From IMG/VR virus record IMGVR_UViG_2909278081_000001: DNA of 50,428 bases; one strand, given 5' to 3'. The notes under the pieces are model-generated. The model searched no databases. It was not told the DNA's origin and worked only from the letters and a program-made list of their open reading frames with translations. Source of the stretch: a virus (Duplodnaviria; Heunggongvirae; Uroviricota; Caudoviricetes). This document shows, in pieces, positions 1-42,968 of this stretch; within the stretch, counting starts at the first letter, position 1, and the number at the start of each line of letters is the position of its first letter. Position numbers and translations under genes: made by a program.

Positions 1-405
1 ATGGATCAGGTTGTTGTTTTTCAAAAGATGTTTGAGCAAGTGAGAAAAGAGCAAAACTTCTCCTGGTTTTATTCAGAATTAAAACATCACCGTATTGCAC
101 ATTACATTTATTACCTGGCTACGGATAACATCAGAATTATTACTCACGATGACACGGTTTTGTTATTAAGAGGAACCAGGAACCTGTTAAAAGTTAGTAC
201 GACCAAGAACCCTGCTAAAATAAAAGAGGCCGCATTGCTTCATATTTGCGGAAAATCAACATTTCGGGAATACTGTTCAACACTGGCAGGCGCGGGCGTT
301 TTCCGGTGGGTTACTGATGTTAATCATAACAAACGCAGTTACTACGCCATTGATAATACGCTTTTATATATTGAAGATGTAGAAAACAATAAACCATTAA
401 TCTAG
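1..405 (+). CDS. ycgX: host DUF1398-family protein (YcgX-like), 134 aa
   Basis: Complete ORF starting at ATG at position 1; translation matches my recollection of E. coli YcgX, which neighbours iraM. Recalled, not searched. Confidence 0.6.
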   Translation: MDQVVVFQKMFEQVRKEQNFSWFYSELKHHRIAHYIYYLATDNIRIITHDDTVLLLRGTRNLLKVSTTKNPAKIKEAALLHICGKSTFREYCSTLAGAGVFRWVTDVNHNKRSYYAIDNTLLYIEDVENNKPLI

Positions 406-612
406 CTAAAGTTGGAAGCTTAAGAAATGCTTCATAATTCAGTAAGACATTAGCATAATGGAAATAAAAGTGCAGAGACTATCCCTATGGATGATAAATA
501 CTATCTTTTTATTGCCACCCATAAATAATCACCAGGCCAATACTATCAAATTGATATTTGAAATGTGATCACTTGACTTTCTATACGTTATTTTATAACG
601 GTTAACAAATTT

Positions 613-664
613 ATAAAACCAACGGGCGTGCCATACGCCCGTTTCAATACTTAACGCACATGTG
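613..664. repeat. about 50-bp hairpin-containing element, copy 1 of 2 (second copy 1481..1530)
   Basis: ataaaaccaacgggcgtgccatacgcccgtttcaatacttaacgcacatgtg is near-identical to 1481..1530; contains inverted repeat aacgggcgt/acgcccgtt. Confidence 0.6.
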
Positions 665-1107
665 TTTTGGTTTAGTCATCATCCGATTATATGTATTTTA
701 GTCAGGAACGGGTTTAACCATTCCTATATAACTCAAAAATTGAAACCTTATTCTCAGGTCATGCTTATATTCATCATTATCATTATATTAAAAGGCCAAT
801 CATAATGTTTTGCAAATTGGCACAACATAGCATAAAGGCTATGTTTTAATTACAGAATGTTCAGTCATTTGAATGTATAATATTTTAGCTAAACAAATCT
901 AAAACGAAGTGAATAATTTAATGTTTTCACTAAATCTCATTTTGTTTAATCTCTATTGAGATTCCTTGCTTTAAATTTTGTTTTATATAGGTAATGACAT
1001 TAATTTTTAATTAATTTATTTTTTGGGGAGTAATATACACATATGCAAAATCAAGAAATGAACATCCAAATGAACTATATTAAACACCGTGGGATAAGAC
1101 ATAACAA

Positions 1108-1431
1108 ATGAAGTGGATAGTAATTGATACGGTAATTCAACCTACATGCGGCATATCTTTTTCAGCCATATGGGGTGATATGAAAATGATCATCTGGTAT
1201 CAATCTACTATATTTCTCCCTCCTGGAAGTATATTTACACCGGTTAAGTCTGGTATTATCCTTAAGGATAAAGAATACCCTATTACTATTTATAACATCA
1301 CACCATTCAACAAGGATTTATGGATTTTACTCAAAAGCAGTCAAGAGTGTCCTCCAGGAGAAAGCGAAATAACAAATAAATGTTTACATAATAGTTGTAT
1401 TATAAAAATATGCCCATATGGACTCAAGTAA
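1108..1431 (+). CDS. iraM: anti-adaptor protein IraM (RssB inhibitor), 107 aa
   Basis: Translation [12 protein letters not shown]...KICPYGLK matches recalled E. coli IraM/YcgW almost residue for residue; in K-12 iraM lies next to the icdC end of the e14 element. Confidence 0.85.
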
Positions 1432-1488
1432 TGGGCTTCATATAAATATGCTCGACATGCTATTAATAATATCCACATAAATAAAACA

Positions 1489-1512
1489 ACGGGCGTGTTA
1501 TACGCCCGTTTC
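1489..1512 (-). terminator. rho-independent terminator downstream of the icd 3' end (copy 2 of the 50-bp repeat)
   Basis: Hairpin aacgggcgt-gttat-acgcccgtt; on the minus strand it is followed by gttttatttatg, directly after the icd stop codon. Confidence 0.55.
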
Positions 1513-1533
1513 AATATTTAACACATGTAGAGA

Positions 1534-1698
1534 TTACATGTTCTTGATGATCGCATCACCAAACTCGCTGCATTTCAGCAGCTTAGCACCTTCCATCAGA
1601 CGTTCGAAGTCATAGGTTACGGTCTTCGCATTGATTGCGCCTTCCATACCTTTAACAATCAGGTCTGCAGCTTCAGTCCAGCCCATATGGCGCAGCAG
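1534..1698 (-). pseudogene. icdC: isocitrate dehydrogenase 3' fragment (icdC-like), last about 54 codons plus stop; prophage attachment junction
   Basis: Minus-strand translation ...[54 protein letters not shown] equals the Icd C-terminus; homology stops abruptly at about 1698/1699 where AT-rich foreign DNA begins. Confidence 0.85.
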
Positions 1699-2197
1699 TA
1701 TATAAAAACAATAAGTTCAAGTCATTGATATTTAATGATAAAAATTATTTTATTGTCTTTTTATTAGCCAAAATCAACTTTATTCAACCGTTTGATTTCA
1801 TTGACGCTCGTTTTTATTTTGGGGAAAGGTTTTATCTACCATTTATATCAAAATTACAAGTCTACATTTTATTAACATCTCAATACATGTGAGGCCTTGC
1901 AGACCTTTGTGAGACCTTATGTGTCTCAGTTTTGTCCCACCTTTTATTACGACTTGCATAGCCAATGAAGATAAACGTGACGACAAACGGCGCAGCAATC
2001 TTCCTTTCTTTCACACTTTCCCAACCCAGCATGTATACTTTTCTGCCATAACTAAAGTGAATGCCTGTTATGAGCAACAAACAGGCATTAGCGCCGCTAG
2101 CATATTAGCTACCATTCGACTGCCATACTTAAGATTGATTTCTTAAGTATAACCCGGTTTCTAATACTACTTGTATATTCAGCTCTGAGATTCATTT

Positions 2198-5100
2198 TTA
2201 TCTCGTAAAGCTAGTTTTATGACTTCCTGTTAGCTGACTGTCTTCATAATAAAATGCTCCACTAAACTCCTGTCGACCATAATGATGACTTGATGTGAGT
2301 GAGCCCCCTATAACGCCCTTTTCACCTAATAATGTCCAAACGATTTCAAAACCATTGTCCCTTAACATTGTTAAAAATGGTTCTTTTTTAACAAGTAGAT
2401 GCGGCTTTGAAGCATATACAGCTTCAGCTGCAAAGCAAACCATAGTTCCATTTTCATCATTGAAGCTACCCTCTACTTCCCCACTTTTTAATCCCATCTT
2501 TTCAAAGATTAAGTTACTAGGCTTCAAAAAATTCAAAGTTTCTATTTTTGATTTGTCGAACTCCTCTTCCCACAAATAATTAATCGAAGTGACACTAACA
2601 TCAGCAATCTTAGCTCCAGACTCCCGGTCTGTTACCGAAGTCCAGTCAGATCCACCATAATAATCTGATTTAAAAGACTTAAATGCTTCGGACCAATAGT
2701 ACTCCCTATTAAATAATTGGTATCTATCAGTACATTCCGGCATCCACCTGCCCATAAAGTCTTGAGCTATTGCCCAATCTCTAAAATTTTCAAATTCTTC
2801 AACTTTAACGATATAACTTCTGATCTGATACCAAACCTCTTTTCGTGGGTGCCCCCAATCATCGTTTCCAATAATTTTTGGTTCTTTCCATGATGGATAA
2901 CTTTCTAATACTATCCATTCATCACCATTATCATCTTTAACTTCAATAAAAGCATATGAATTAGTTATAGTAGTAGAACTTTTAACCCAGTCTTCATTAG
3001 AGCAAGTCCAATCAAACACTTCATCATTAAGCCACCACATTTCTTTATTGCTTATTTTTTTCGTTCCAGTTTCTTTAAGTAAGATAGTGGGATCTATATC
3101 TCTTACGTAAGGCTCCCATGGCCCTTGGTATGGATTTTCCTTTCGTTCGTCACCATAACCTTCAAAACGAGTAAAATTATCGGCTAGCCTTGCCATGTAT
3201 TCATAATAAGCAATCCATTGGTATTTTTTACCAATCCGTTCTTGGAATGCCTCTCTACGTCCACGTCCAGTTCCTATTTGTTGGTCAAAATTACCATGCT
3301 TCTCCGGATCCCAACCAAGCTCTATAACACGATTGAATATAAATTGTTGAGCTAGTCGAAGATCAAAGTGTTTATCAGTTTCCAGCAGATTATTATTATG
3401 ATCCAGGTATGGCTCTATTTCATTTTCAAACTCACTTAACAGATCGTATGACAATGAATTCTTAAATAATTTCTTGCTCGCCTTTATTTCTTCCTGTGCT
3501 TTTCTACCGACCACACGACCAAATTTAATTCCTTCGCATTTATCATCATAAATGAAAGGATCTGTGGCATCATGCAAATCTTTTTGTTGATCAGTTAGTT
3601 TACATTTGAAAGTTTTAAAAACTTGCTTACGGTCAACAGGGGTTTCATTAAACTTGCAACCAGACCAATCAGAATGATTATAATTTGTTCCAATAGTATA
3701 TCGTGAAAAGTCACCACCTTCCATAATCGAGCTCCAGAGTTCCCGATAAGGTTCTTTATCATAAAGGGACTCTAGTTCCTCTTTTGAAGGAATCTTGTCA
3801 GGCCAAATGCTGTTGTAGGGTGGTCTAGTCTTGGATAATTCAATGCTTTCAAGTTCCAATCCAAGATGATTAGCAAATTCAATAATCTCTCTAGCATAAT
3901 CTCTAAGTAATATATTTGGATACACATACTCAGAACAAAATACCTTTTGGTAAACAGTTTCGGCTAAATATTTTAGTTCTTTAATATTATCAGTTCGCAA
4001 TGTACAGCCTAATGCAACTGCAAATATTCTTTCCCAAACGTAAGGATCATTTACACCATAAAACTTATCAATTATTTTTCTCAATACAGGAATTCTTGGC
4101 TCGAGTAAACTCACTAAAGCCTTGGTTGAGCAATCTCGAAGTTCTCGGTTACTAGAAGTTAAAAACCAGCATAAACTAGTTGCAACTAGCTCGATTGACT
4201 CATCCGAAACGAAGCTTTTGTCTGTTCTGCCCCATGCCCAATCGATTAGATGCCTAAATGCTGAGTCTTCACTATATTTATATTTAAGTTTTGTAGTCCA
4301 AAACGAATCTCGATTTGCCAAAGGGTAATCTTTTAGCCAATCATGCAAGAAATTAGCATTAAAGGGATGGTCAACTAAACCTGAAATAGAGATCACTGCC
4401 TCGAGGAAATGATCAAAACTATCTTTAAATTTAAAAACATGTTCATTGATGAAAGGTCTGATTTTTTCGAAATCAATAGCCTTAATATCTCGCCATATCA
4501 AGCTATCAATAAAGGCTTCTAGTAATTTATGATTATTGCTGAACTCCGGCAGAAGTTCATAAAGCTCTTTTCCATACTTTTCTGGCAATTGAATAGACAG
4601 CGCCTCTACTATTCCCGGGTTTATATAAAAGTCACATTCATCATGAAAATATTTTTTCAGACGACCATCTGACTTAAATTCACTTTCGATATTTTCAACA
4701 TCATTTAATAAAAAATTAACAGTTAAATGATCATCAAACCTTTCAAAAGCCACATGAACTACTTCCTCAGTAGAATTATCATCATTTCTCACTATGCCTT
4801 TAGTCAATAATCCTTCGTCAATCAAGGCGCTGAGGAAGGTTTTATCAGCAACATAATCATTAACTACAGATTGAACCACTGAGTGAGCATCTCTAAGTGA
4901 AATACTATTACGACCAATCTCTAATTTGAATTTTATGATTTCATTGAGAGCATCTTTAACAAGAGGAAAACTGGGATCGAATGCATATTTTCTTGGCGAT
5001 GCTAATGATTTATTTACCCCTTCCACTAAAAAGTTAAAAATATTTGAAATCCCATTAAATCCAACAGGCACTTTGGTTAAACCATTTTTCTTAATGCCTT

Positions 5101-6652
5101 CACACAATAACTTAAGAAATAGAGGGTTTTTAAACTCTGGATTAAGGTTAGGTGATGAAGGCCTCTCTATATTGTAATAATCATAAAATAGACTAACCGC
5201 TTCCAACTCAACGTTCTGAAATCCAATATGTTCATGAATTTCAAAATTATTTCGCTCAACATTCTCATGTGAAATTGTTACATTTCTATATGTTGTTCTG
5301 ACTGACATTATCAGACCAAGCCATTCAAAGCCTCTGATTTCATCGACAAAACTGTTAATATTGTCATTCCAGAATTTATTTCCATTACCTTCATTAATAG
5401 CATCAATAAAAACTAAGACTCTTTTTCCTGTTTTTTTGCCATATAAATTCAGTTTTTCTAGGAATTCACGAGAAGTGATTTTAAGCTGTAATCTCTTGAA
5501 GATTTGTGACCATGGAGATTCATCTGAAGTAAGTTGTTGCCCTAGTATGAGTAGAGAAGGATACCCAGAAGCAATTCGATTTTTAATCACATCAGCCAGT
5601 AAATGAGACTTACCAATTCCAGCTTTTCCTTCGAGAAGTAAGAATGGGTTGTTAGCCAACTTCACTGTTGTTGAATTAATGAATGCACGTAATTCATTGC
5701 ACGCATAGTCAAGTTCCCGAAGCATTCGCAGAGTAGATGAATAATTATCACTGTAATGCTTGGTTTCACCTACTTGTTCTGACTTTTCTCGGAGTTCCCA
5801 CAATATTGATTCCGCTCCGCCAATAGCTGTCTGGCAGCTAGAAACATAGTTATTAAATTTATTTATAGGGACTTCATCTAATTTAGAAAAATTAATTTCT
5901 TGATATATATCAGAAATTTCTTTTAAGGACTGGTCTATTTCAGATAATTGTGAGGAAATTACATCGCAACTATGTAATTTCTTTCCAGTGACCAGAAAAC
6001 TATCTATATGCGAATAAAATATTTTAGAAAAATTATTAGTTCTACCGAGACCATCAAATATCTCTGCTATTTCTAGCTTTACGTTGAGTTCGGGTGTGTA
6101 TCGGCCTCCCAAGTCAGCTATTGCTTGACTACTTTTCTCATTTAACCAATCATCACTCAAGTGAAAAGTTAGTTTCTCATCTATAGACCGCAAAACAAGT
6201 TTAATTTGAATAAGCTCTTCATTAATATCGAATATTTTTTCTTTATAAGTTTCTTCGATATGTAGCTTTTTTAACTTCGAACAATTATTTATTTTTAACG
6301 ACAACATCCCATAAAAAAGGCTGAGTTGTTGTTGAGTTGGGGGAGTGACGCTTGGATATTCTTTGAACTTGTCTAATAACATCTCTTTGTCAGGGAACTC
6401 TTTAAAAAGGATGTGCTCATTCAACATCTCAAACAATGGTTTAGAATGATAAAATGGAATTGCTCCACTTTCTACTGGATATGTTTCTTCAAACTCAATT
6501 GCCGTCTCTTCAATTAGTTGATATAATCTATCCACATATTTTTCTGTGGGGAATAATGCTTTCTTAATCCAACTATATCCTTCTTGAGAAATGAATTGAT
6601 CAATAAGTTTAGTTGCTACATAAGTTGCCACTGTAATTGATATGGGTTCCAT
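2198..6652 (-). CDS. large P-loop NTPase, STAND/NACHT-like (1484 aa); candidate anti-phage defence protein
   Basis: Single uninterrupted 4.4-kb ORF, visibly AT-rich. Walker A LLEGKAGIGKSHLLADV about 330 aa from the N-terminus, Walker B-like RVLVFIDAINEG, long Trp-rich C-terminal region. Family assignment is inferred from motifs only. Confidence 0.6.
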   Translation of the reverse strand: MEPISITVATYVATKLIDQFISQEGYSWIKKALFPTEKYVDRLYQLIEETAIEFEETYPVESGAIPFYHSKPLFEMLNEHILFKEFPDKEMLLDKFKEYPSVTPPTQQQLSLFYGMLSLKINNCSKLKKLHIEETYKEKIFDINEELIQIKLVLRSIDEKLTFHLSDDWLNEKSSQAIADLGGRYTPELNVKLEIAEIFDGLGRTNNFSKIFYSHIDSFLVTGKKLHSCDVISSQLSEIDQSLKEISDIYQEINFSKLDEVPINKFNNYVSSCQTAIGGAESILWELREKSEQVGETKHYSDNYSSTLRMLRELDYACNELRAFINSTTVKLANNPFLLLEGKAGIGKSHLLADVIKNRIASGYPSLLILGQQLTSDESPWSQIFKRLQLKITSREFLEKLNLYGKKTGKRVLVFIDAINEGNGNKFWNDNINSFVDEIRGFEWLGLIMSVRTTYRNVTISHENVERNNFEIHEHIGFQNVELEAVSLFYDYYNIERPSSPNLNPEFKNPLFLKLLCEGIKKNGLTKVPVGFNGISNIFNFLVEGVNKSLASPRKYAFDPSFPLVKDALNEIIKFKLEIGRNSISLRDAHSVVQSVVNDYVADKTFLSALIDEGLLTKGIVRNDDNSTEEVVHVAFERFDDHLTVNFLLNDVENIESEFKSDGRLKKYFHDECDFYINPGIVEALSIQLPEKYGKELYELLPEFSNNHKLLEAFIDSLIWRDIKAIDFEKIRPFINEHVFKFKDSFDHFLEAVISISGLVDHPFNANFLHDWLKDYPLANRDSFWTTKLKYKYSEDSAFRHLIDWAWGRTDKSFVSDESIELVATSLCWFLTSSNRELRDCSTKALVSLLEPRIPVLRKIIDKFYGVNDPYVWERIFAVALGCTLRTDNIKELKYLAETVYQKVFCSEYVYPNILLRDYAREIIEFANHLGLELESIELSKTRPPYNSIWPDKIPSKEELESLYDKEPYRELWSSIMEGGDFSRYTIGTNYNHSDWSGCKFNETPVDRKQVFKTFKCKLTDQQKDLHDATDPFIYDDKCEGIKFGRVVGRKAQEEIKASKKLFKNSLSYDLLSEFENEIEPYLDHNNNLLETDKHFDLRLAQQFIFNRVIELGWDPEKHGNFDQQIGTGRGRREAFQERIGKKYQWIAYYEYMARLADNFTRFEGYGDERKENPYQGPWEPYVRDIDPTILLKETGTKKISNKEMWWLNDEVFDWTCSNEDWVKSSTTITNSYAFIEVKDDNGDEWIVLESYPSWKEPKIIGNDDWGHPRKEVWYQIRSYIVKVEEFENFRDWAIAQDFMGRWMPECTDRYQLFNREYYWSEAFKSFKSDYYGGSDWTSVTDRESGAKIADVSVTSINYLWEEEFDKSKIETLNFLKPSNLIFEKMGLKSGEVEGSFNDENGTMVCFAAEAVYASKPHLLVKKEPFLTMLRDNGFEIVWTLLGEKGVIGGSLTSSHHYGRQEFSGAFYYEDSQLTGSHKTSFTR

Positions 6653-7183
6653 GATTAGCTTCTTCCAACAATTAAATTTTTTACCAAGCGTTTATGCTTT
6701 CCAATAATTATTACATCTCACCGTAAAACATATTTATATGGTTTTAAACCTATCTGTAAATCTTGACACCTTGGCAAGAACCTAATCCTACATTTTAATA
6801 TCAATCTATATAATATCGCCAGCGTCATAATAATCGGGCTTGTCATAGTTAAGTATTCGCCTCCGATATCCCAATGAGATAAGTAAGTCATAAGTGTTAT
6901 AAATGAAAAGGTTTCATTTTTCAAAGAGTTATTATGATGGAATATTATTCAAAACGCAATGTGGCTGAAACGAGTCTGAATCTAACATCCGCTCCTAGCA
7001 CATAGCAGCCATAGAGACAGTGGCGTAAAGTCATGGAGGATCGGTGGGAGAAGGTGCAAATCCTCCCCTACAAAAAATACGTAAAAACGGTAACGGCTGG
7101 AAATCATTCAATACTCGCACTATCGAAAGTTAACCAGCCAGCCGCAGTATCCTATCATGACAAGTTACTGCGGCTTTTTATAT

Positions 7184-7501
7184 TTAACGGATCAACAGCC
7201 AGACCAGCAGACATGCCACCACCGGCACAGCAAAATCCATCAGGCTTGCCACATCCCATGCACGAGGATCAAAACCGCCCCACCACGGCATGTTAATCCG
7301 CTTGCCATGCCCGAACATTTCAATCCAGCGATATTCTGCCTGGGTATGTTCACGAGCGATGAAGAACGTACAACCAGCTATCGCACCGTAAGCCCAGTTT
7401 CCGGTAAAAAGACCAACCAGTACCTGCGCAGCCACAGCACAAAGCGCGTGAAGGAAAGGTGTTATATCCATTTTCATCCTACCCAATAAAACGGGACTCA
7501 C
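7184..7501 (-). CDS. small hydrophobic protein, likely inner-membrane; function unknown
   Basis: ORF with two hydrophobic stretches (AVAAQVLVGLF, VPVVACLLVWLLI); true start may be Met9 or Met11; sits between the distal fiber gene and the NTPase gene. Confidence 0.45.
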   Translation of the reverse strand: MSPVLLGRMKMDITPFLHALCAVAAQVLVGLFTGNWAYGAIAGCTFFIAREHTQAEYRWIEMFGHGKRINMPWWGGFDPRAWDVASLMDFAVPVVACLLVWLLIR

Positions 7502-7513
7502 GGCCCCTTAATA

Positions 7514-8554
7514 TTATTTAGACGCAAGCGCCGCCTCAATTGCAGATAATCTTTGTCTTAATTCTGCGTTTTCTTCTTCCAGTGCTGTTATTCTGTCGTC
7601 GGACTCTCTGGCTACCTGAACAAGCAAGCCAGTAACACCAGAATAATCTACAGTGTAATACCGTTCACCTTCTTCGCCTTCAGATCCGCTACCACCGTCC
7701 CTATATTTTATCGTAGAGCCTACGGACTCTGGAATTGCTTCTAAGGCTTCCTGTGCGATAACACCAGCGTAAGGCATCCCGTTTTCTTTAAGCGTGTATG
7801 TATAACCATTCATCTTACGGATGCGATTGGTTGCATTATCAATCACCTGAATATTATCTTTCAGGTCTCGGTCAGAGGTCTGGTTAAATGCGGTCGCTTG
7901 ACATGCACCATTAACAGCAAATGCATATGTGTCATCTGTTTGTTTTTGACCGAAGAATATAAAAGCCCCACCATCTACACCAACTTCATAAACAACCGGA
8001 CGGCTGGAGTTGCCCCACAATTTAGCAGTAACGCCAGCGTGAGCGGTTCCCTGTGTGTTTAGTGTCATGGTCGAACCATGATTAGCATATTTGATCTGTA
8101 ATGTGTCTGTATAATCAAATTTAATCAGGGCATTATCTACACGATCCCCATAGGACATGAGGCATTTACCCATTTTCAAATAACCAGCAGTGCCAGGGAA
8201 AATTAAAGTTCCTCCGTAAAGATCACTAAAGTCCCAAAAGATACCTTTTGTCCCGTTATGTGTGACGATCCTCGTCATTGTATCTTTAGTACCATCAATA
8301 TTTTTTCTTGTATATATATCACTATAAGCGTTTTCCGTTTCACCAGTCTTATTTGACAAATGCAGCTTACCGCTGAATATAGTTCCAGTTGTTGGCAATG
8401 TTTTTTGTTCATAGATTACATTGCAATAACCATTCCATGTTGTTTTATTGTCTACATAAGATTTTGTTGCATAGCTTCCTTGATCAGTTTTTAGTTTACT
8501 AACATCGGATTTTAGCGTTTTGATGTCATCAGGAATTACTGTTTTTGTAACCAT
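7514..8554 (-). CDS. tail fiber/tailspike-like protein with C-terminal intramolecular-chaperone (S74-type) domain and coiled-coil tail
   Basis: C-terminal DRDLKDNIQVIDNATNRIRKMNGYTYTLKE... resembles the auto-cleaving chaperone of fiber/endosialidase proteins, then ALEEENAELRQRLSAIEAAL coiled coil. By motif, not lambda Tfa. Confidence 0.6.
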   Translation of the reverse strand: MVTKTVIPDDIKTLKSDVSKLKTDQGSYATKSYVDNKTTWNGYCNVIYEQKTLPTTGTIFSGKLHLSNKTGETENAYSDIYTRKNIDGTKDTMTRIVTHNGTKGIFWDFSDLYGGTLIFPGTAGYLKMGKCLMSYGDRVDNALIKFDYTDTLQIKYANHGSTMTLNTQGTAHAGVTAKLWGNSSRPVVYEVGVDGGAFIFFGQKQTDDTYAFAVNGACQATAFNQTSDRDLKDNIQVIDNATNRIRKMNGYTYTLKENGMPYAGVIAQEALEAIPESVGSTIKYRDGGSGSEGEEGERYYTVDYSGVTGLLVQVARESDDRITALEEENAELRQRLSAIEAALASK

Positions 8555-8566
8555 TGTCTTACTCCA

Positions 8567-8836
8567 TTAAGCCCATGTCCTTACATGCTGATCTGTCGTA
8601 ATGAAAGGCATTAAAGAAGATATGTTTTTACTGCCATCAACAATCCTCATGTTTACGAAAAAACCACCGCGATCAATGCCTGTACATCTTTCGTTTTCTG
8701 GCTCCTCGTAATCGATAATGCAGCCAATAACATCAACAAGAACCCCATTTTCTTCTTCAAGACTGAACAGGCCACTGTCATATACAATTGCGTTAAACTG
8801 TTCTCTGTTATCGAATCGTAATGTTATATCCCGCAT
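8567..8836 (-). CDS. hypothetical protein, 89 aa, translationally coupled to side tail fiber gene
   Basis: Start overlaps the stf stop by 1 nt; acidic; no recognised motif. Confidence 0.45.
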   Translation of the reverse strand: MRDITLRFDNREQFNAIVYDSGLFSLEEENGVLVDVIGCIIDYEEPENERCTGIDRGGFFVNMRIVDGSKNISSLMPFITTDQHVRTWA

Positions 8837-11199
8837 TATACGTATTCCTTAAGCTGCGTATCTGACAATGCTCTGTTCCAGAAACGGAGGTTTTTTATAT
8901 GACCATTAAGGTGTCGTAATCCTGTCGTCGTTTGCCCCCCGATACGAATCACGGCAGCTTCACGAATATATTTCCATACTGTTTTTGTTTCTGTGCTTAT
9001 ATGCTTATTTGCAAATGAGCATGTCATGCCGTCAGCCTTAACCCTGAATCCCATAACGAGATCTCTTACTCCGCATGACTCATATACACGTCGGTTAGCC
9101 CCGCCTATATCGCAATACGAATAACCATCCTGACTAATAGTTCCAGAAGAACCAAACCCCATAATAAATGGGCCCCCGGACTGGTGATTTTCTGAATCAA
9201 TGACACGCGGTGCAGCATTATGAGAAATAAACCAGTTTTTATGGACTTCCACCATGAACGTAAAAGGCATGGTATACATATTTTTCATCAGCGGAAATTT
9301 ACATAAATCTGATGCACGAGTAGCTGGCTCTGTTGTCGTTATGATAAAGGAAGTTGCACAAGCACCATACTCAAATTGCGGGGTGGTTACTTCTATCCAG
9401 TCACCTGTTGCAAAAGACCCCACAGCTCTGTCGGCTGCAATTTGCAACTGCGTACCAACCATTCCCCATTCTGGCAGACATTTCAGGGTTGCCTGAAAAT
9501 ATATCCATCCACTACCTGGATCGATTTCAAAGTTTGCTGTTAATAGCTGGGCATTACCACCCGTAATTTGTAGTTCATGGGTCTGTAATGACAAATAGGC
9601 GTCACAAAGGAAAGTGTATCCTTCCGAGTTATACCGTTCAAAACGGATACGTGCGCGAACATTGAGATCACTTCTTACCCTGAACGACGCGGTAACATAC
9701 GGACCTTTACTGTACTGATCATCGCCAGTCACATCTATGCCTTTATTACCAGCAACTGTGCATATATTTCTCCCTGTTGTCGTTCCTGCTATGTCGCTTC
9801 CTACTGTGAAACGTCCATATTTAAACTCAAATTCATCTGTTGATGATGTTACAGATATACCACCGCTTTTATTCCAGGCATCAGGATTAAAACTATTTAC
9901 GAACATGTTTGTTCGCTGATTCTCTATCAGCAAACCATATTTTTCAAAACGAGGAACGTTATTCCCTGCCACGGTAATATGCCCGGACTTATCAATATAC
10001 GTTGCAGATGAAGCCCGGCTAAATTGGCATATGCCATTAACAGGCATTGTTATTTCATCACTGCCGATGGTTATTGTTTTATAGCCCGGGGCATACCCTG
10101 TTATCGCTTCCAGAGAATCATTCAAGGGTAGCCAGATATCAGGAAGCGGAGGGACAGAAGCAGGATCAGCGGCATCTTCTGCAATCCGGGCTGCATTCTC
10201 TGCTCTTGTTGCGGCTGACGTTGCTTCTGTCTCGCTGGCTGCTGCTTTTGTTTCACTCGTCTTTGCGTTAGTTTCACTGGCTTTTGCAGCTTTTTGGCTA
10301 TTAGCTGCCGCTGTTGCAGAACCGGCCGCCGCGCTCTCGCTTTCAGCTGCTGCAGCCTGGCTGTTTTTCGCCGCAGTTTCACTGGCTTTGGCATTCGTTT
10401 CGCTGGTTTTCGCTGCCGTCTGGCTGGACTTTGCGTTAGTTTCACTCGTCTTCGCTGCTTTCTGACTGTTAGCCGCAGCAGTTGCTGATCCGGCTGCTGA
10501 AGTCGCAGAACCAGCTGCAGCACTCTCGCTTTCGGCTGCTGCATCCTGACTGCTTTTCGCTGCAGTTTCGCTGGCTTTGGCATTCGTTTCGCTGGTTTTC
10601 GCTGCCGTCTGGCTGGACTTTGCGTTGGTTTCGCTCGTCTTTGCGGCTGTCTCGCTGTTTTTCGCGTTGGTTTCTGATTTTTTGGCTGCTGTCGCGGAGT
10701 TTGCCGATGCAGTCTGTGAGGTCGCTGCCGCCTGTGCGCTGTTAGCTGCATTCGTTTCTGAGGTTTTCGCCGCGTTCTTCGATGATGCCGCTGCAGTTTC
10801 GGATTTCTTTGCCGCCGCTGCGCTCTGAGAGGCGGCTTCGGCGTTGCGTGCCGCTTCTTCCACCATTTCCTGAAAACGGCGCAATGCCTCCGGCATGACA
10901 TCATCTTCCGTCATGGCACCGAGAAAATCATTCAGCGTCCCCGGACTGGAACCTTCATAGACGGTAATGGTCCCAACATGTGATGGCTGAGAACCCTCAA
11001 TCCACAGGATGACGCTGTACTGACCATACTCAACGTCCATACTGTAACGCCCGGCTTCATCAGGATTTTCAGATGCCACCGTGTTCACCAGTACCGTGGT
11101 GCTGTTACGCTTTGCCTTCAGTTGAATAGTGCAGTTCTGTATTGGTTTTCCCGCACCATCTTTCAGCACACCTGAGATTTTTACTGCTGCCATATCCAC
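8836..11199 (-). CDS. stf: side tail fiber protein (Stf-like), 787 aa, mosaic
   Basis: N-terminus AVKISGVLKDG...QNCTIQLKA matches lambda Stf; Ala/Ser/Thr-rich repetitive middle; C-terminal half unlike lambda Stf as recalled. Confidence 0.85.
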   Translation of the reverse strand: MDMAAVKISGVLKDGAGKPIQNCTIQLKAKRNSTTVLVNTVASENPDEAGRYSMDVEYGQYSVILWIEGSQPSHVGTITVYEGSSPGTLNDFLGAMTEDDVMPEALRRFQEMVEEAARNAEAASQSAAAAKKSETAAASSKNAAKTSETNAANSAQAAATSQTASANSATAAKKSETNAKNSETAAKTSETNAKSSQTAAKTSETNAKASETAAKSSQDAAAESESAAAGSATSAAGSATAAANSQKAAKTSETNAKSSQTAAKTSETNAKASETAAKNSQAAAAESESAAAGSATAAANSQKAAKASETNAKTSETKAAASETEATSAATRAENAARIAEDAADPASVPPLPDIWLPLNDSLEAITGYAPGYKTITIGSDEITMPVNGICQFSRASSATYIDKSGHITVAGNNVPRFEKYGLLIENQRTNMFVNSFNPDAWNKSGGISVTSSTDEFEFKYGRFTVGSDIAGTTTGRNICTVAGNKGIDVTGDDQYSKGPYVTASFRVRSDLNVRARIRFERYNSEGYTFLCDAYLSLQTHELQITGGNAQLLTANFEIDPGSGWIYFQATLKCLPEWGMVGTQLQIAADRAVGSFATGDWIEVTTPQFEYGACATSFIITTTEPATRASDLCKFPLMKNMYTMPFTFMVEVHKNWFISHNAAPRVIDSENHQSGGPFIMGFGSSGTISQDGYSYCDIGGANRRVYESCGVRDLVMGFRVKADGMTCSFANKHISTETKTVWKYIREAAVIRIGGQTTTGLRHLNGHIKNLRFWNRALSDTQLKEYV
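10250..10640. repeat. tandem duplication of about 190 bp inside stf
   Basis: gcagtttcactggctttggcattcgtttcgctggttttcgctgccgtctggctggactttgcgtt at about 10374 recurs nearly exactly at about 10562; encodes ...TSETNAKSSQTAAKTSETNAKASETAAK... twice. Unit boundaries approximate. Confidence 0.8.
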
Positions 11200-21898: not shown

Positions 21899-22294
21899 TC
21901 ACATTTCATAGGTAATGACATAAGTCAGATCGGCTGAACTCCACAGGCCCGCATCATCGTCGCGCCGGTAGTCATAGCCGCTGGCCACCATACTGGTGAT
22001 CAAATCTGACAGTGCCGGGATATCGCTCATCACCGGATAAATCCGGGACTCCATCCACGCATCCAGCTCTGAATCCGGCACCTGAGCAGGCAGGAAAACT
22101 TCGATATGCAGCTCCGCCTGCCAGGTATCGCTGTCCAGCTCTTCGCCCGTGTATTCAGCGCCGGTGAGATAAACGGCAACTGCCGGAAAATCCGCCTCAT
22201 CAAAAACAGCGGGGCGACCATCAAAAAACGTCGCCCGGGTGTCATGCTTCTCCAGTGCATCCAGTACGGCTGCACGGAGTTCAGTATGTTTCAT
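21899..22294 (-). CDS. U: tail terminator protein U
   Basis: 131 aa, matches lambda gpU. Confidence 0.95.
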
Positions 22295-22868
22295 CGCTTT
22301 ATTACCATCCTCAGTTGATGCTGCAGCGCATAGCCCAGCTCTTTCGGAAGACGTTCACGCCGTATCCGCTCAATATTTTGTTTAAACGCCGTGGTCAGCG
22401 GCACCGCCATCGGGATTTTCACCACATCAATGGGGTAACGGTTTTTCCCGGCCACACGCTGCATGACATGCCACCGGCCATTTTTCAGTTGCTGAATAAA
22501 CGCGCCGGGAATACGACGGTTACCCACCACAAGCACGCTGCCGCCACCTTTCAGGGATGAACGCTGCCCCTTTTTACGACGCCTGCGGCGCGAAAGGACA
22601 ACCCGCGCATTACCCAGCTTGATTACGGGCAAATCCCCCGGTTAACTTTGATTCTGGCCTGCGGATTTTTGACCGTGGCCCTTTTCAGCCTGGCCCTTTC
22701 CTTTACCAGTTTCCGGCGTACCTTTGTCTCACGGGCAACCTGTGACGCCGACTGCGATATCGCGGATGAAGCAACGCGGTTAATGGCCATTGCGGCGGCA
22801 CCAGGCACCGCCGTTTTGCTGATACGGCTGAGGTTTTCAACGGCCTGCTCAAGACCTTTTATGGCCAT
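22291..22868 (-). pseudogene. Z: tail completion protein Z, split by a 1-nt frameshift in a C5/G5 homopolymer
   Basis: Two abutting ORFs (81 aa MAIKGLEQAVENL...KVNRGICP* and 113 aa ...PVIKLGNARVV...) together span the length I recall for lambda gpZ (about 192 aa); frames join if one G is added at 22635..22639. Confidence 0.75.
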
Positions 22869-26427: not shown

Positions 26428-30108
<3,681 letters not shown>

Positions 30109-30134
<26 letters not shown>

Positions 30135-35779: not shown

Positions 35780-36823
35780 ATGAAAATTAACAAGATATTA
35801 TCATCTGCAACACTATTGTATGGTATGTCAATGGCCATGTCGGTCGGGAGTTGTGCAACACCTGTCCAGACTAATCTTCCTGGTTACACCCCGGGTGCAG
35901 ATATCATTAGTGTTTCACCCACCAGAAACCAGGTCGATCTCATTGGTGATGTTGTTTATTCCCAGATAAAAGGAACTCGTTCTGTCAGACAGCTTCACAT
36001 GTCAGTTCTTGTCCCGCGAACAAATGATTTAAAACCAGCCATTATTTATTATCCCGGCGGCGGATTCATGTCTTCTGAACATGACAAATTTATTGAAATG
36101 AGAATGGCTCTGGCTGAAGCTGGTTTTGTTGTGGCCGCTGTAGAATACAGAACAATTCCTGATACATTTCCAGCACCAGTTGAGGATGGGAAAGCTGCAA
36201 TACGTTACTTGAGAGAACATGCCAGCGATTATGGGATTGATCCTCAAAGAATCGGAGTTCTGGGTGACTCTGCCGGTGGATGGCTTGCCCAGATGATGGG
36301 AACTACAAATGGTGACAAAACCTTTAATAAAGGTGACTTTCTTCAGCAATCAGCAGATGTTCAGGCTGTTGCCACACTTTATGGGATTTCTGACTTGTTG
36401 AATATTGGCGAGGGGTTCCCTGAATCAGTGCAGGAGGTTCATCGATCTCCTGCCGTAACCGAAGCCTTAATGATCAATGGCCCTGCATTCAGAAGTTTTG
36501 CGGGAGCCCCCATAACAGCGTCAAAAGAAAAAGCGCTAAACGCCAGTCCAATCGGACATATGAAAGGAGTAAAACCCCCATTTCTTATTATGCATGGTAG
36601 CAAAGACACTCTGGTTTCACCTGAGCAAAGCGCCAAACTATTCAGGATGTTGAAGAAGAACGGCGATAACGCTGAGTACGTTCTGGTAGAAGGGGCTGAG
36701 CATGGCGATAATACATGGTATCAGCCAATTATTATAAACAGAGTTGTTGAGTGGTTTACTAAAAACCTGGGAACCCCCATAAAAACCGCTACCCAACAAC
36801 AAAAAACAAACGCTGACCTGTAA
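35780..36823 (+). CDS. lipoprotein alpha/beta-hydrolase (esterase/lipase family), cargo gene
   Basis: Signal peptide with lipobox (SVGSC), oxyanion-hole YYPGGGF, nucleophile elbow GDSAGG, C-terminal GAEHGD; only plus-strand gene in the minus-strand early-right operon. Confidence 0.8.
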   Translation: MKINKILSSATLLYGMSMAMSVGSCATPVQTNLPGYTPGADIISVSPTRNQVDLIGDVVYSQIKGTRSVRQLHMSVLVPRTNDLKPAIIYYPGGGFMSSEHDKFIEMRMALAEAGFVVAAVEYRTIPDTFPAPVEDGKAAIRYLREHASDYGIDPQRIGVLGDSAGGWLAQMMGTTNGDKTFNKGDFLQQSADVQAVATLYGISDLLNIGEGFPESVQEVHRSPAVTEALMINGPAFRSFAGAPITASKEKALNASPIGHMKGVKPPFLIMHGSKDTLVSPEQSAKLFRMLKKNGDNAEYVLVEGAEHGDNTWYQPIIINRVVEWFTKNLGTPIKTATQQQKTNADL

Positions 36824-36826
36824 AAA

Positions 36827-36847
36827 GCAGCCCGCACTTATGCGGGC
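36827..36847. terminator. hairpin between convergent esterase and ybcK genes (possibly bidirectional)
   Basis: gcagcccgca-ctta-tgcgggc; T-rich flank on the minus-strand side. Confidence 0.45.
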
Positions 36848-37172
36848 CAACCTATTTCACTCGATTCAAAAGAAATTATTTTTAATGGGGGCGTGACCAG
36901 CCTCTCGGTGCTCAGATACTTAATGAAGTGGAGTGGCATTCAGGCAAGAGGTTAACATCACCTGTTCGCCATAACCAAGCACGTGCACAAAGTTTGTTAT
37001 CAGTGAATTGTTTTGTGATTGGGTATTGTTGAGCTACTAGAGCAAGAATGCCAACATCCAGTGGCAGTGCCTATAGTAAAACTATAGCTCAGGGCGCTTC
37101 GTTCAAGATAGTTAATATCATATTAGTTACTTTACTTTCATACCATAGCACGGTTGAAAAAGTGATTATTAC

Positions 37173-38699
37173 TCAAAAATAAATCTCACCATCAACCATA
37201 TATTTAAGAGTACTTATCACCTGCTGGGCGGATATTACTTTCATTAAAGGATAGTGTTTAAAAACAATGCCATTCATAAAATAGATATCACAGGTTTTAT
37301 TATCTGTATTAATTATAATTTTTTCGAATATTTTATAGGCAAGTGTACGACATAGCTCTCGCCCATTTTTACTGGTTAAATCAATAGCATGAAAATCACC
37401 AAGTGAACTCACCCCTTTACTCTTCAAAGTTTTTAATGATACCGAAGCCCTTCGTAATTCCTTATCTAATAGTCTTATTTTCTCTGCTATAGCGGTAACT
37501 TCAGGCGCGACAGACAATGCAACGATTAAATTATTAATTTTCATCTGAAGCTCAATAATTTTTAACTCTAAAGTTTCATTAGCATCTTTCTTGTTTTCAA
37601 CTGGTTGAATTTTGCTACAATTAAAAAGCAATTCATTAATGATATTATAATCAACCAAATCTCTTTTTATTGATGGTCTGTCACATCGATGTAATCTTCT
37701 CATCGGACAAACATAATAGCCATGCAAACTTCCAGATACCGCATGAACAATCATGGTATTACCACAAGCCTCACACTTCATAACTGTTCGAAGTAGATTT
37801 ATTAGCATAGGATTCTTGCTACTATTGCTAATACCAAAAGGTGCCAACCGAATTTCCTGTACAGCGTAAAACAAATCATCTGATATGACTCTGGGATAAT
37901 AGCCAGCGATTTCACTTATCCCTTTCCCTCTTGCACGATATGAAGGTACGCATATACCTATCAGAGCTTTATTCGCTAATAATTTTTCAATTACAGAAGG
38001 TCCCCATGCACTTTCTTTTCCTGAGAAATTCTTTACAGCATGATCATTTAAATACTTGGCTATTGCATTCAATGAGCGCCTTTCCATCCTGAGTTTAAAA
38101 ATTAGCTCAATAGTTTTCACCCTGTCGGGGTCTGGAACAAAAGCCGTTCTTTTGTCATCCAATGAGAGCCATCTCGGACAAGAAGCCGTCATAATCGTGC
38201 CTGACTCCAGTGCATCCTGCCGTTTTTTCTTCCATGATAATTTAACCCGACTTGACTTTATCTCGCTTTCTTCATTTGCCCTTTGTGCTATAAGTATGGC
38301 TTTTATTAATGAATATGGCTCATTCAATGAGTCAATATTATAGACTGTATTATCGCAAAGAGTTATAACATCAATACCGTGATTCAAAATCAATTTCAGA
38401 CGCTCAATCGCTTCACCGACTTTTTCTCTTGAAAGTCTGTCCAGACTTTCAACTAACAATGTAGTCCCTGGCAATATATAACCATGTTCTATAGCATCTA
38501 AAAATTCCGAAAAAGCTCCTGATTGTGCATGCTTTCCATTGAATGCGCTTAACCCCAAATCTTCATACGTTACGGTATCAAGGTAATAATCACTATTTAC
38601 CTTTAGCCATTCAGTAATAAGCCTTCTCTGGCGGTTTAATGAATCACCAGACATCTGACCTGGTGATGAAAATCGCATATATGCTATGGCTTTTTTCAT
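37173..38699 (-). CDS. ybcK: large serine recombinase (YbcK-like)
   Basis: 508 aa; N-terminal resolvase-type fold (…AYMRFSS…), C-terminal recombinase and Cys-rich segments (CEACG...CPMRRLHRC); AT-rich. Confidence 0.8.
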   Translation of the reverse strand: MKKAIAYMRFSSPGQMSGDSLNRQRRLITEWLKVNSDYYLDTVTYEDLGLSAFNGKHAQSGAFSEFLDAIEHGYILPGTTLLVESLDRLSREKVGEAIERLKLILNHGIDVITLCDNTVYNIDSLNEPYSLIKAILIAQRANEESEIKSSRVKLSWKKKRQDALESGTIMTASCPRWLSLDDKRTAFVPDPDRVKTIELIFKLRMERRSLNAIAKYLNDHAVKNFSGKESAWGPSVIEKLLANKALIGICVPSYRARGKGISEIAGYYPRVISDDLFYAVQEIRLAPFGISNSSKNPMLINLLRTVMKCEACGNTMIVHAVSGSLHGYYVCPMRRLHRCDRPSIKRDLVDYNIINELLFNCSKIQPVENKKDANETLELKIIELQMKINNLIVALSVAPEVTAIAEKIRLLDKELRRASVSLKTLKSKGVSSLGDFHAIDLTSKNGRELCRTLAYKIFEKIIINTDNKTCDIYFMNGIVFKHYPLMKVISAQQVISTLKYMVDGEIYF

Positions 38700-38954
38700 G
38701 GTGACACCTGCTAAAGTATGCTTTTATAAACCTTAGTGGTGAGATATGATTTTTGTTTAATTTTTATTTAAAAAGACAATTAAGGTCACATTATCTTGAA
38801 TATACAACAATAATCGTATTGCAATTTTCTTACACCATAATCTTGAAAGCACAAAAGAATGAATAAAAACTAAAGACATTAACAAAAAGCATAAAACGAG
38901 GCCCATATAAATATACGAGCCTCCATATTTTAGTCGTTTAAAAACAAATTATTT

Positions 38955-39287
38955 TTAATGTGGTGTGCTTCGTGACAATAAATTAATAACCAACACACCG
39001 GCACAAATCAACATCATGCCTATAATGGCTGGCAGGTCCAACCGTTGGCCGAAAAATCCCCATGATAGTAAGCTAATCAGGACAATACCGACTCCTGACC
39101 AGATAGCATAAGCAATCCCTGTAGGAATATAAGCCAGCGTCTGAGCTAATAACCAGAATGATGCACAATAACAAATAATTGTACCAACAGATGGCCATAA
39201 CCGTGTAAAACCTTCTGAAAACTTCATTAAGGTTGTACCAATGACCTCTGCAAGTATTGCACCACCAAGATAAATATAAGGATTCAT
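38955..39287 (-). CDS. emrE: small multidrug resistance efflux protein EmrE
   Basis: From Met19 of the supplied ORF: MNPYIYLGGAILAEVIGTTLMKFSEGF... 110 aa, matches E. coli EmrE. Confidence 0.9.
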   Translation of the reverse strand: MNPYIYLGGAILAEVIGTTLMKFSEGFTRLWPSVGTIICYCASFWLLAQTLAYIPTGIAYAIWSGVGIVLISLLSWGFFGQRLDLPAIIGMMLICAGVLVINLLSRSTPH

Positions 39288-42275: not shown

Positions 42276-42968
42276 ATGAAAAAAGAAACTCTTGCTGATC
42301 GCTTAAACCTAGCGATGGAACAATCTGGAATGTCTCAAGGCGCTCTTGCAAAGGCGTCTGGCGTAGCTCAACCCACAATCTGGAGACTGACAAGCGGCAA
42401 CGCACGCGGCTCAACAAAAATTGTTGAAATAGCTAATGCATTGGGTGTTCGAACAGAGTGGCTCTCATCAGGCATAGGCCCGATGAGAAATGACGGTCAA
42501 CAATCAGGGAAGCCTGCTGTCAACCATTCCAAATACTTCAAGATTGACGTTCTTGATATAGAAGTCAGTGCTGGGCCGGGTGTCATCAACCGTGAGTTTG
42601 TAGAAGTCCTACGCTCGGTTGAGTACTCGTTTGACGATGCTCGTCACATGTTCGATGGCAGGAAGGCAGAAAATATCCGCATCATTAACGTACGCGGTGA
42701 CAGCATGTCAGGAACGATCGAACCAGGTGATCTTCTGTTCGTTGATATCACTGTTAAATCTTTCGACGGTGATGGTATCTATGCGTTTCTGTACGACGAC
42801 ACAGCCCATGTAAAGCGCCTGCAAATGATGAAGGATAAGCTGCTGGTTATCTCTGATAACAAGAGCTACTCACCGTGGGACCCGATCGAAAAAGACGAAA
42901 TGAATCGGGTATTTATATTTGGGAAAGTTATTGGGAGCATGCCACAGACATATAGAAAACATGGGTAG
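42276..42968 (+). CDS. cI: cI-type repressor (HTH plus LexA-like S24 peptidase domain)
   Basis: Start set at MKKETLADRLNLAMEQSGMSQGALAKASGVAQPTIWRL (HTH); C-terminal GDSM and HVKRL motifs of S24 autopeptidases. Confidence 0.85.
   Translation: MKKETLADRLNLAMEQSGMSQGALAKASGVAQPTIWRLTSGNARGSTKIVEIANALGVRTEWLSSGIGPMRNDGQQSGKPAVNHSKYFKIDVLDIEVSAGPGVINREFVEVLRSVEYSFDDARHMFDGRKAENIRIINVRGDSMSGTIEPGDLLFVDITVKSFDGDGIYAFLYDDTAHVKRLQMMKDKLLVISDNKSYSPWDPIEKDEMNRVFIFGKVIGSMPQTYRKHG

Follow-up and report, generated by a model that had tools for sequence, protein, structure and literature searches.

A predicted terminase-sensing Avs2 allele carried as AT-rich cargo in an icd prophage of Escherichia coli N3

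The cargo slot at the icd junction

The window, a stretch of 50,428 nucleotides (IMG/VR record IMGVR_UViG_2909278081_000001), contains a prophage of the phage-21/lambda type from E. coli N3. Its features are listed in Table 1. A preliminary description, made from the sequence alone, had noted one giant uninterrupted open reading frame (ORF) in AT-rich DNA, between the tail-fiber module and the icd junction, and had likened its position to the slot of the non-essential b region in lambda. The ORF listing returned a single intact ORF with an ATG start at this position. Its GC content is 34.7%, compared with 54.0% for the lambda-like genes at positions 7184-34000 of the window. The tail-fiber genes (7514-8554 and 8836-11199) lie on one side of it and the icd fragment on the other. 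Phage 21 integrates in icd, and att-adjacent sequence resembling that of phage 21 is present at the junction. One tail gene of the prophage is frameshifted.

The gene, annotated avs2 in RefSeq, is the only gene in a mobile cassette of 5.27 kb. The end points of the cassette are identical in strains I4, 23CRST028 and EF7-18-58, with 96-98% identity by blastn, and no flanking direct or inverted repeats were found around it. On the tail-fiber side, the slot is bounded by an ORF of 95 amino acids that is ~93% conserved in icd prophages carrying sitABCD and that matched nothing in Pfam or PADLOC. Comparison of icd prophages, which had been suggested as a check, revealed that the contents of the slot vary between strains; mcrA, McrBC-like genes and sitABCD were each found there. 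Among 5426 complete E. coli genomes, only 2 had avs2 as icd-slot cargo in a lambdoid prophage. These results indicated that avs2 is an AT-rich moron in a slot of the icd prophage equivalent to the lambda b region, as first proposed.

The cryptic prophage e14 of E. coli K-12 (pinE-mcrA-icdC) shares the chromosomal junction of the window prophage (icd', iraM, ycgX) and also carries a defense gene downstream of a tail-fiber/pin module. The gene carried by e14 encodes the type IV restriction enzyme McrA, whereas the window prophage carries avs2.

Table 1 Features of the cargo slot, the Avs2 protein and the resident terminase. Coordinates are positions in the window; domain boundaries preceded by ~ are approximate.
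Feature	Position	Strand	Basis or remark
icd 3' pseudogene fragment; prophage/chromosome junction, icdC side	1534..1701	-	RefSeq; homologous to K-12 icdC
Phage-21-like att-adjacent sequence	1716..2078		89.6% identity to phage 21 (M61865.1, OL657228.1) and lambda-21 hybrids
AT-rich cassette, 5.27 kb	1880..7145		avs2 with 318 bp downstream and 493 bp upstream; recurs in other genomic contexts
avs2 coding sequence	2198..6652	-	1484 aa and stop; assigned as EcAvs2 allele; RefSeq avs2, WP_116836614.1
Sensor region, ~aa 561-1484	2201..4972	-	Helical TPR-like, then beta-rich putative terminase-ATPase sensor; contact residues conserved
STAND NTPase module, ~aa 331-560 (C-terminal boundary approximate)	4973..5662	-	Sub-threshold Pfam STAND matches; Walker motifs
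Walker B-type strand VLVFID, aa 412-417	5402..5419	-	Sequence; canonical hhhhD pattern
Walker A GKAGIGKS, aa 342-349 (K348)	5606..5629	-	Sequence
Helical extension, effector to NTPase, ~aa 166-330	5663..6157	-	Conserved Avs2 core
N-terminal effector, ~aa 1-165	6158..6652	-	Predicted all-helical; MEPIS start
Last conserved phage-backbone ORF, 95 aa	7184..7471	-	Bounds cargo slot, tail-fiber side
Prophage large terminase, gpA type	28209..30134	-	Pfam GpA_ATPase and GpA_nuclease; 99.5% identical to lambda gpA

Assignment to Avs2 and domain layout

The preliminary description had compared the protein with antiviral STAND proteins of the Avs or bNACHT type and had proposed profile searches against these families. 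Avs2 models matched over their full length and above cutoff. NCBIfam NF041813, the Avs2 equivalog, scored 1697 bits (cutoff 1000; aa 178-1476; profile positions 1-1317 of 1317), and the PADLOC Avs2 model PDLC02164 scored 1763.7 bits (E = 0; aa 22-1483). EcAvs2 (AVAST type 2; PDB 9O4E, chain A; Evans et al. 2026, PMC13601566) aligned from residue 1 to residue 1484 with residues 1-1484 of the window protein, at ~97% identity and with no indels. A hand count from this alignment gave 45 substitutions, which are concentrated toward the N-terminus, 23 falling in aa 1-330 and 22 in the remaining 1154 residues. [quoted passage not shown] Pfam models of STAND NTPases (nSTAND6, NACHT and NB-ARC) matched the full protein only below threshold, within aa 325-427, and the best of these, nSTAND6, reached 18.7 bits against a threshold of 27.7. 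The NACHT model PF05729 reached 14.4 bits (cutoff 26.7) and covered aa 338-357 only; the protein belongs in Avs2 rather than bNACHT. The first reading as an antiviral STAND protein of the Avs/bNACHT type was supported. By these matches the giant ORF is an allele of Avs2, an already known bacterial immune sensor. A tblastn search of phages with the full protein also returned a 31% match to "Staphylococcus phage UPMK_1", which was rejected because its neighbors (SigS, acetyl-CoA synthetase and an ars operon) mark host DNA in a record labeled as a partial genome.

The gene is therefore already known, being annotated in RefSeq and having a 97%-identical relative with a published 2.3 A structure and defense data. 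It adds little as a discovery, and its value lies in the natural setting in which genes of the EcAvs2 type travel: an AT-rich cassette at the terminal prophage slot, interchangeable at the icd junction with mcrA, McrBC-like genes and sitABCD. EcAvs2 itself is said to have been reported first by Gao et al. in 2020/2022.

The P-loop and Walker B-like motif that had been pointed out are both present (GKAGIGKS, aa 342-349; RVLVFIDAINEG, aa 411-422), and so is the tryptophan enrichment of the C-terminus, with 17 tryptophans (3.5%) in the last 484 residues. The first ~330 residues had been taken for one N-terminal domain. It comprises two units rather than a single domain. Avs2 profile models that lack this effector begin their alignment at aa 131-178, and effector homology in other proteins stops at ~aa 150-165; aa 1-165 were therefore assigned to a variable effector and aa 166-330 to a helical extension of the Avs2 core. 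In EcAvs2 this extension is located proximal to the terminase (PMC13601566).

The composition of the gene, typical of xenogeneic DNA, bears on whether the allele is in use. Xenogeneic AT-rich DNA is often silenced by H-NS, and the allele may be a silenced or decaying passenger without current defense function: the promoter scan found 21 consensus sites where 21.1 were expected and no convincing promoter, and the frameshifted tail gene lies in the same prophage. We nevertheless consider this reading highly improbable. Random stop codons are frequent in AT-rich DNA, yet the 4455-nt ORF is intact; all of the functional residues tested are conserved; and of the 88 complete genomes with avs2, 87 match over the whole gene at 96.6-100% identity. 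Furthermore, EcAvs2 is active on a plasmid from its native promoter (PMC13601566). Terminator sites were not above chance, and no Rfam families or tRNAs were found at positions 1-9000 of the window.

The N-terminal effector

The preliminary description could not assign the N-terminal effector to a known class, and the searches performed here bore this out. Pfam returned nothing meaningful for the effector alone, its only match being Erf4 (E 0.09), and no HeLo or Hell model matched even at E <= 10. Fold searches with the effector produced no fold match and no enzyme match, phmmer against PDB sequences found 9O4E only, and tblastn searches of deposited phages with the effector or with its first 34 residues found nothing usable. 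A phmmer search with the effector retrieved 210 representatives; among the matches listed, the domain sits at or near the N-terminus on differing sensors, and it is fused to NACHT, nSTAND3, NB-ARC+TPR and PIN-TPR-GreABC sensors. An AF2 model of the effector was all-helical, with eight helices and moderate confidence (pLDDT 70.4). In the published cryo-EM map of EcAvs2, the effector is invisible.

The window protein begins MEPISITVATYVATKLIDQF, the most hydrophobic 19-residue stretch of the whole protein, and carries the literal MEPIS motif at its start. An M-[ED]-P start is also found in a subset of effector homologs. No hydrophobic segment of transmembrane grade was detected, the maximum Kyte-Doolittle mean over 19 residues being 1.09. 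Bell/Hell domains and "Avast2" are reported to have the conserved MEPIS motif in common, and mutations in the MEPIS region are reported to impair Avast2 defense against T4 (Ibarlosa et al., bioRxiv 10.1101/2024.11.07.622273). With the Bell, HeLo, Hell, CC(HeLo) and MLKL-4HB domains, represented by Bab of the Bab/Agp pair, the window effector shares an N-terminal hydrophobic MEPIS region of ~15 residues and an all-helical make-up with an N-terminal position on an NLR-like sensor. One of the sensors fused to its family, PIN-TPR-GreABC, is also the sensor class that partners Bab. Bell-type domains have 80-100 residues and five helices, whereas the window effector has ~165 residues and eight predicted helices, and no significant similarity in sequence or fold to the Bell, HeLo or Hell domains was found beyond the short MEPIS motif. 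It has been hypothesized in the literature that Avs2, by way of its fused MEPIS domain, would be a bacterial counterpart to the plant CC-NLR resistosomes that directly punch membranes.

Two other accounts of the effector were weighed against a membrane-targeting helix bundle. The effector may instead be an enzyme of an unrecognized class, such as a hydrolase or a nucleotide-modifying enzyme. In an alignment of 92 long homologs, several polar or charged columns (T50, E53, S70, K128 and E134) are fairly conserved, and most other Avs2 proteins carry enzymatic effectors, for example Mrr-like nucleases (PMC13601566, PMC11564622). The strongly conserved columns of the same alignment, however, are almost all hydrophobic (F67, Y68, L43, L77, F113, L127, I140 and F141), and the searches above matched neither a Pfam family nor an enzyme fold. 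The authors of the EcAvs2 structure likewise regard the effector as non-enzymatic (PMC13601566). An enzyme is unlikely in our view.

The second account, which we consider very unlikely, holds that the first ~15 residues do not kill directly; they would be a signal, of the amyloid or templating kind, that switches on an executioner protein encoded by a separate gene, as in Bab/Agp. The segment ISITVATYV is rich in beta-branched residues, but AF2 predicted a helix at aa 6-24, and the MEPIS region corresponds to the first helix of the execution domain in Bell proteins and not to the BASS11 amyloid motif (Ibarlosa et al., bioRxiv 10.1101/2024.11.07.622273). Moreover, avs2 is alone in a cassette that moves between contexts, and in E. 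coli K-12 and C a single gene is enough for EcAvs2 to function (PMC13601566). A helical effector that attacks the membrane itself remains our preferred account.

Proposed mechanism and the resident terminase

The steps from sensing to cell death have been demonstrated for EcAvs2, which is 97% identical, and are extended to the window allele by sequence comparison. When the whole proteomes of PhiV-1 and ZL19 were screened, the terminase was the sole trigger of EcAvs2 to be found; Ksap1 and vs.8 are known as non-terminase triggers of EcAvs2 (PMC13601566). Oligomerization of EcAvs2 depended on the terminase, the terminase-bound cryo-EM structure is a C4 tetramer, and the K348A substitution abolished defense (PMC13601566). 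By analogy, the window protein most likely binds the terminase ATPase, tetramerizes with ATP and kills via its N-terminal domain. The TPR-like and beta-rich sensor at the C-terminus would bind the ATPase domain of the phage large terminase jointly with the helical extension, and an additional "bridging" ATP would help to seal this interface. A flat C4 tetramer would then form from the ATP-loaded STAND modules, gathering four N-terminal effector domains and leading to death of the cell before the phage cycle is completed. For the effector, we infer a non-enzymatic, helical unit of ~165 residues whose hydrophobic MEPIS helix would be freed upon oligomerization and would attack the membrane as in Bell-, HeLo- and CC-type executioner domains. 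The reading as a whole, namely an EcAvs2 allele that acts by terminase-sensing abortive infection through an inferred membrane-attacking effector and is carried as a moron in the icd slot, has in our estimate a probability of about 0.9.

Two other characterized systems place the window gene among its relatives. KpAvs2 of Klebsiella pneumoniae, which falls in the same family by its Avs2 sensor and NTPase, responds to the terminase and to Ksap1 and defends through abortive infection (Bechon et al. 2024, PMC11564622). It differs from the window gene in having an Mrr-like nuclease effector where the window gene has a predicted non-enzymatic MEPIS effector, and in forming an operon with two associated genes, whereas avs2 is alone in its cassette. 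[quoted passage not shown] In contrast to Avs2, SeAvs3 has a different TPR domain, an elongated rather than flat tetramer and a nuclease effector. Another difference is its binding to the folded terminase nuclease domain.

The prophage in the window pairs a predicted terminase sensor with a lambda-type terminase of its own within one element, which raises a testable question of self-tolerance. Avs2 might also fire on the terminase of the resident prophage upon induction and so abort, like a lock, the lytic cycle of the very prophage that carries it, a tentative idea that we regard as rather unlikely. Conversely, if the lambda-type gpA is a natural non-trigger, its comparison with triggering terminases would define how phages escape Avs2.

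Identification of the large ORF as avs2

A single giant AT-rich ORF lies between the tail fibres and the icd junction, a setting given in the preliminary description on which the ORF listing, GC values and the annotation of E. coli strain N3 (NZ_CP031609.1; 100% identity to the window) agree. The opposite strand carries short spurious ORFs only, and GC content is 34.7% in the ORF and 34.8% in the block 1702-7183, versus 54.0% in the lambda-like structural region (7184-34000).

The product of this ORF is Avs2. It matched the NCBIfam equivalog NF041813 over the entire profile with 1697 bits (cutoff 1000) and six PADLOC Avs2 models (top 1763.7 bits, aa 22-1483), and the gene is already named avs2 in RefSeq (WP_116836614.1). 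A PDB search aligned residues 1-1484 with residues 1-1484 of 9O4E chain A ('AVAST type 2 anti-phage system protein Avs2'), the reference protein EcAvs2. The profile and structure searches, with curated Avs2 models and 9O4E matched end to end, thus supported the earlier suggestion of an Avs-type antiviral STAND protein. The protein could not be placed more closely at that stage because Pfam has no model for the Avs2 family, and a Pfam search returned P-loop/STAND matches only, all sub-threshold. Both nucleotide-binding motifs claimed earlier were found, the P-loop GKAGIGKS at aa 342-349 and the Walker B-like RVLVFIDAINEG at aa 411-422, as was the C-terminal enrichment in tryptophan (17 within the last 484 residues).

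The window allele differs from 9O4E_A by 45 substitutions and no indels (~97% identity; mismatches hand-counted from printed alignments). These are divided between aa 1-330, the effector and helical extension (23), and the other 1154 residues, the NTPase and sensor (22), a density ~3.7-fold higher in aa 1-330 than in aa 331-1484. The protein is already known: the gene is annotated, and a 97%-identical allele has both functional data and a solved structure. The remaining novelty is confined to genomic context and the putative effector mechanism.

Features of the window discussed in the text
Feature	Position	Strand	Description
icd 3' fragment	1534-1701	-	N3 record annotation
avs2	2198-6652	-	ATG start, 1484 aa; ORF listing
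95-aa ORF	7184-7471		conserved; slot boundary on phage side
787-aa ORF	8836-11199	-	intact; ORF listing
Tail gene	22291-22868	-	frameshifted; RefSeq
Large terminase	28209-30134	-	GpA_ATPase/GpA_nuclease; 99.5% identical to lambda gpA
Non-phage cargo block	35780-39287		nin/replication region
XRE/cI-like repressor	42276-42968
SIR2-family gene	43081-44682	+	533 aa; just downstream of the repressor, near the immunity region

Sensing, assembly and the killing step

When the complete proteomes of PhiV-1 and ZL19 were screened by co-expression, EcAvs2 was triggered by the large terminase alone; the ATPase domain of the terminase suffices for activation, and oligomerisation was seen only with terminase (PMC13601566). 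The non-terminase proteins Ksap1 and vs.8 are also triggers (PMC13601566). Together with terminase, EcAvs2 forms a flat C4 tetramer joined through its ATP-bound STAND modules, in which a third, 'bridging' ATP adjoins the terminase ATP and is held by T1128, R1132, E1364 and D981 (with R1130). Defence against T7, PhiV-1 and Pal009 was lost in K348A and weakened by combined mutations at R1132/D981/E1364, E1362, E1444/E1462 and W1266 (PMC13601566). K348, D981, T1128, R1130, R1132, W1266, E1362, E1364, E1444 and E1462 are all identical in the window allele. Since every published functional residue is identical, the sensing and assembly steps are transferable, and from sequence we predict with high confidence that the window allele senses terminase and assembles as EcAvs2 does: it would bind the terminase ATPase domain and form a C4 tetramer through ATP-loaded STAND modules.

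The same element carries both this terminase sensor and a lambda gpA-type terminase, and some defence against lambda-vir has been reported for KpAvs2 (PMC11564622). Either the resident terminase escapes Avs2, or prophage induction would trigger it. Because one tail gene is frameshifted, the prophage may be unable to produce particles in any case.

The N-terminal ~330 residues, described earlier as one domain, comprise two units, the effector and the remainder. Avs2 HMMs built on homologues that carry different effectors start their alignment at aa 131-178, and the true effector spans about aa 1-165. Pfam has no family for it. Among 1.84 billion cluster representatives, phmmer identified 210 relatives, with the match starting at or near the N-terminus in every match listed. 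Carriers are mainly ~870, ~1250 (commonest) and 1380-1490 aa long, and those sampled had NACHT, nSTAND3, NB-ARC+TPR or PIN-TPR-GreABC modules, or an Avs2-like NTPase whose C-terminus is shorter. This variety of sensor modules confirms the statement that the effector is a modular domain common to several systems (PMC13601566).

Among 92 long homologues, strong conservation in the effector falls almost entirely on hydrophobic columns (F67, Y68, L43, L77, P105, F113, L127, I140, F141), with moderate conservation at only a few polar ones (T50, E53, S70, K128, E134). An AlphaFold2 model from 19 sequences was all-helical, with 8 helices (pLDDT 70.4, pTM 0.69). No transmembrane-grade segment was found in the effector (best 19-mer Kyte-Doolittle mean 1.09); aa 4-22 is the most hydrophobic 19-mer in the entire protein.

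The N-terminus of the window protein is a literal MEPISITVATYVATKLIDQF. In the Bell-domain executioner Bab, the ~15 N-terminal residues are termed the 'MEPIS' region; they make up helix 1, which is hydrophobic and sits in a cup of four further helices. The region is kept in fungal Hell, bacterial Bell and the antiphage NLRs 'Avast2, bNACHT02, bNACHT11 and bNACHT23'; its mutation in Avast2 impaired T4 defence (bioRxiv 10.1101/2024.11.07.622273). During T5 infection Bab shifts to the periphery of the cell and the membranes change, and Ibarlosa et al. proposed that helix 1, once freed, targets the membrane in the manner of HET-S, ZAR1 and MLKL (same preprint; listed as Nat Microbiol 2025 among the references of PMC13601566). 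Direct fusions also join the window effector family to PIN-TPR-GreABC proteins (sampled carrier P0024), the class of sensor that an amyloid motif couples to the Bell executioner in Bab/Agp. The MEPIS start and this fusion argue for an effector that is non-enzymatic and is directed at the membrane once tetramerisation releases it, a model to which we give slightly less than even odds (roughly 0.4-0.5). The hydrophobic MEPIS helix would then attack the membrane. A test for whole-domain homology to Bell/HeLo found none, so the effector is not filed as a member; the likeness is limited to motif and architecture.

The icd cargo slot and the distribution of avs2

In N3, chromosomal ycgX-ymgL-iraM is followed by the icd 3' fragment, avs2, the 95-aa ORF, tail fibres, lom and J, and then by the remaining lambda-type morphogenesis module, lysis genes, Q, replication, repressor and recombination genes, xis and int. 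Positions 1716-2078 are 89.6% identical to att-adjacent DNA of phage 21, a classic lambdoid phage that integrates at icd. Gene order and this att-side DNA indicate that avs2 fills the tail-fibre/att slot, the counterpart of the lambda b region.

Cargo of this slot varied in a small sample, which bears out the variable hotspot suggested earlier: pinE-mcrA in K-12 e14, a McrBC-like pair in Survcare253, and sitABCD in M12, FDAARGOS_1266 and UPEC-774U, accompanied or not by a hypothetical gene. The slot, bounded by icd' and the final phage ORF (1702-7183; compared with loci L006-L010), thus holds mcrA, McrBC-like genes, sitABCD or avs2 by strain. In several other genomes avs2 lies right after pinE, the position of mcrA in e14.

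Of 5426 complete E. coli genomes, 88 contain avs2, with 96.6-100% nucleotide identity in the 87 with a whole-gene match; only in N3 and C4 does it lie at the icd junction. None was found in deposited phage genomes. By blastn, the shared unit is sharply bounded (window 1880-7145/7147) and 96-98% identical in three other settings: beside a CP4-6-like island and recombinase fragment (strain I4), next to a P4-like integrase in another lambdoid prophage, at its tail-fibre end (23CRST028), and straight after pinE in prophage remnants near paoD (EF7-18-58, likewise E8). No flanking repeats of the unit were found. Exactly at its upstream boundary, 7140-7175 contains an inverted repeat of 18 nt, perfect-stem-type (GCCGCAGTA...TACTGCGGC), with a T-run after it on the + strand; this may be a terminator insulating the cargo from the phage late operon.

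Other genes of the prophage

The SIR2-family protein has a Pfam SIR2_2 domain, related to ThsA, and a full-length match to the PADLOC candidate defence family PDC-S25 (E 9.5e-235); its gene is likely a second defence gene of the prophage. The 787-aa ORF contains a long repetitive Ala/Ser/Thr/Glu-rich stretch with many 'KTSETNAK'/'AAKSSQ'-like units. RefSeq annotates two features here instead, a shorter CDS at 8836-10047 and a pseudogene for a tail-fibre N-terminus at 10827-11193, a split that may be an artefact caused by the low-complexity repeat. The non-phage cargo block encodes an alpha/beta hydrolase (BD-FAE family), a ybcK-type serine recombinase and emrE, and resembles the arrangement in DLP12.
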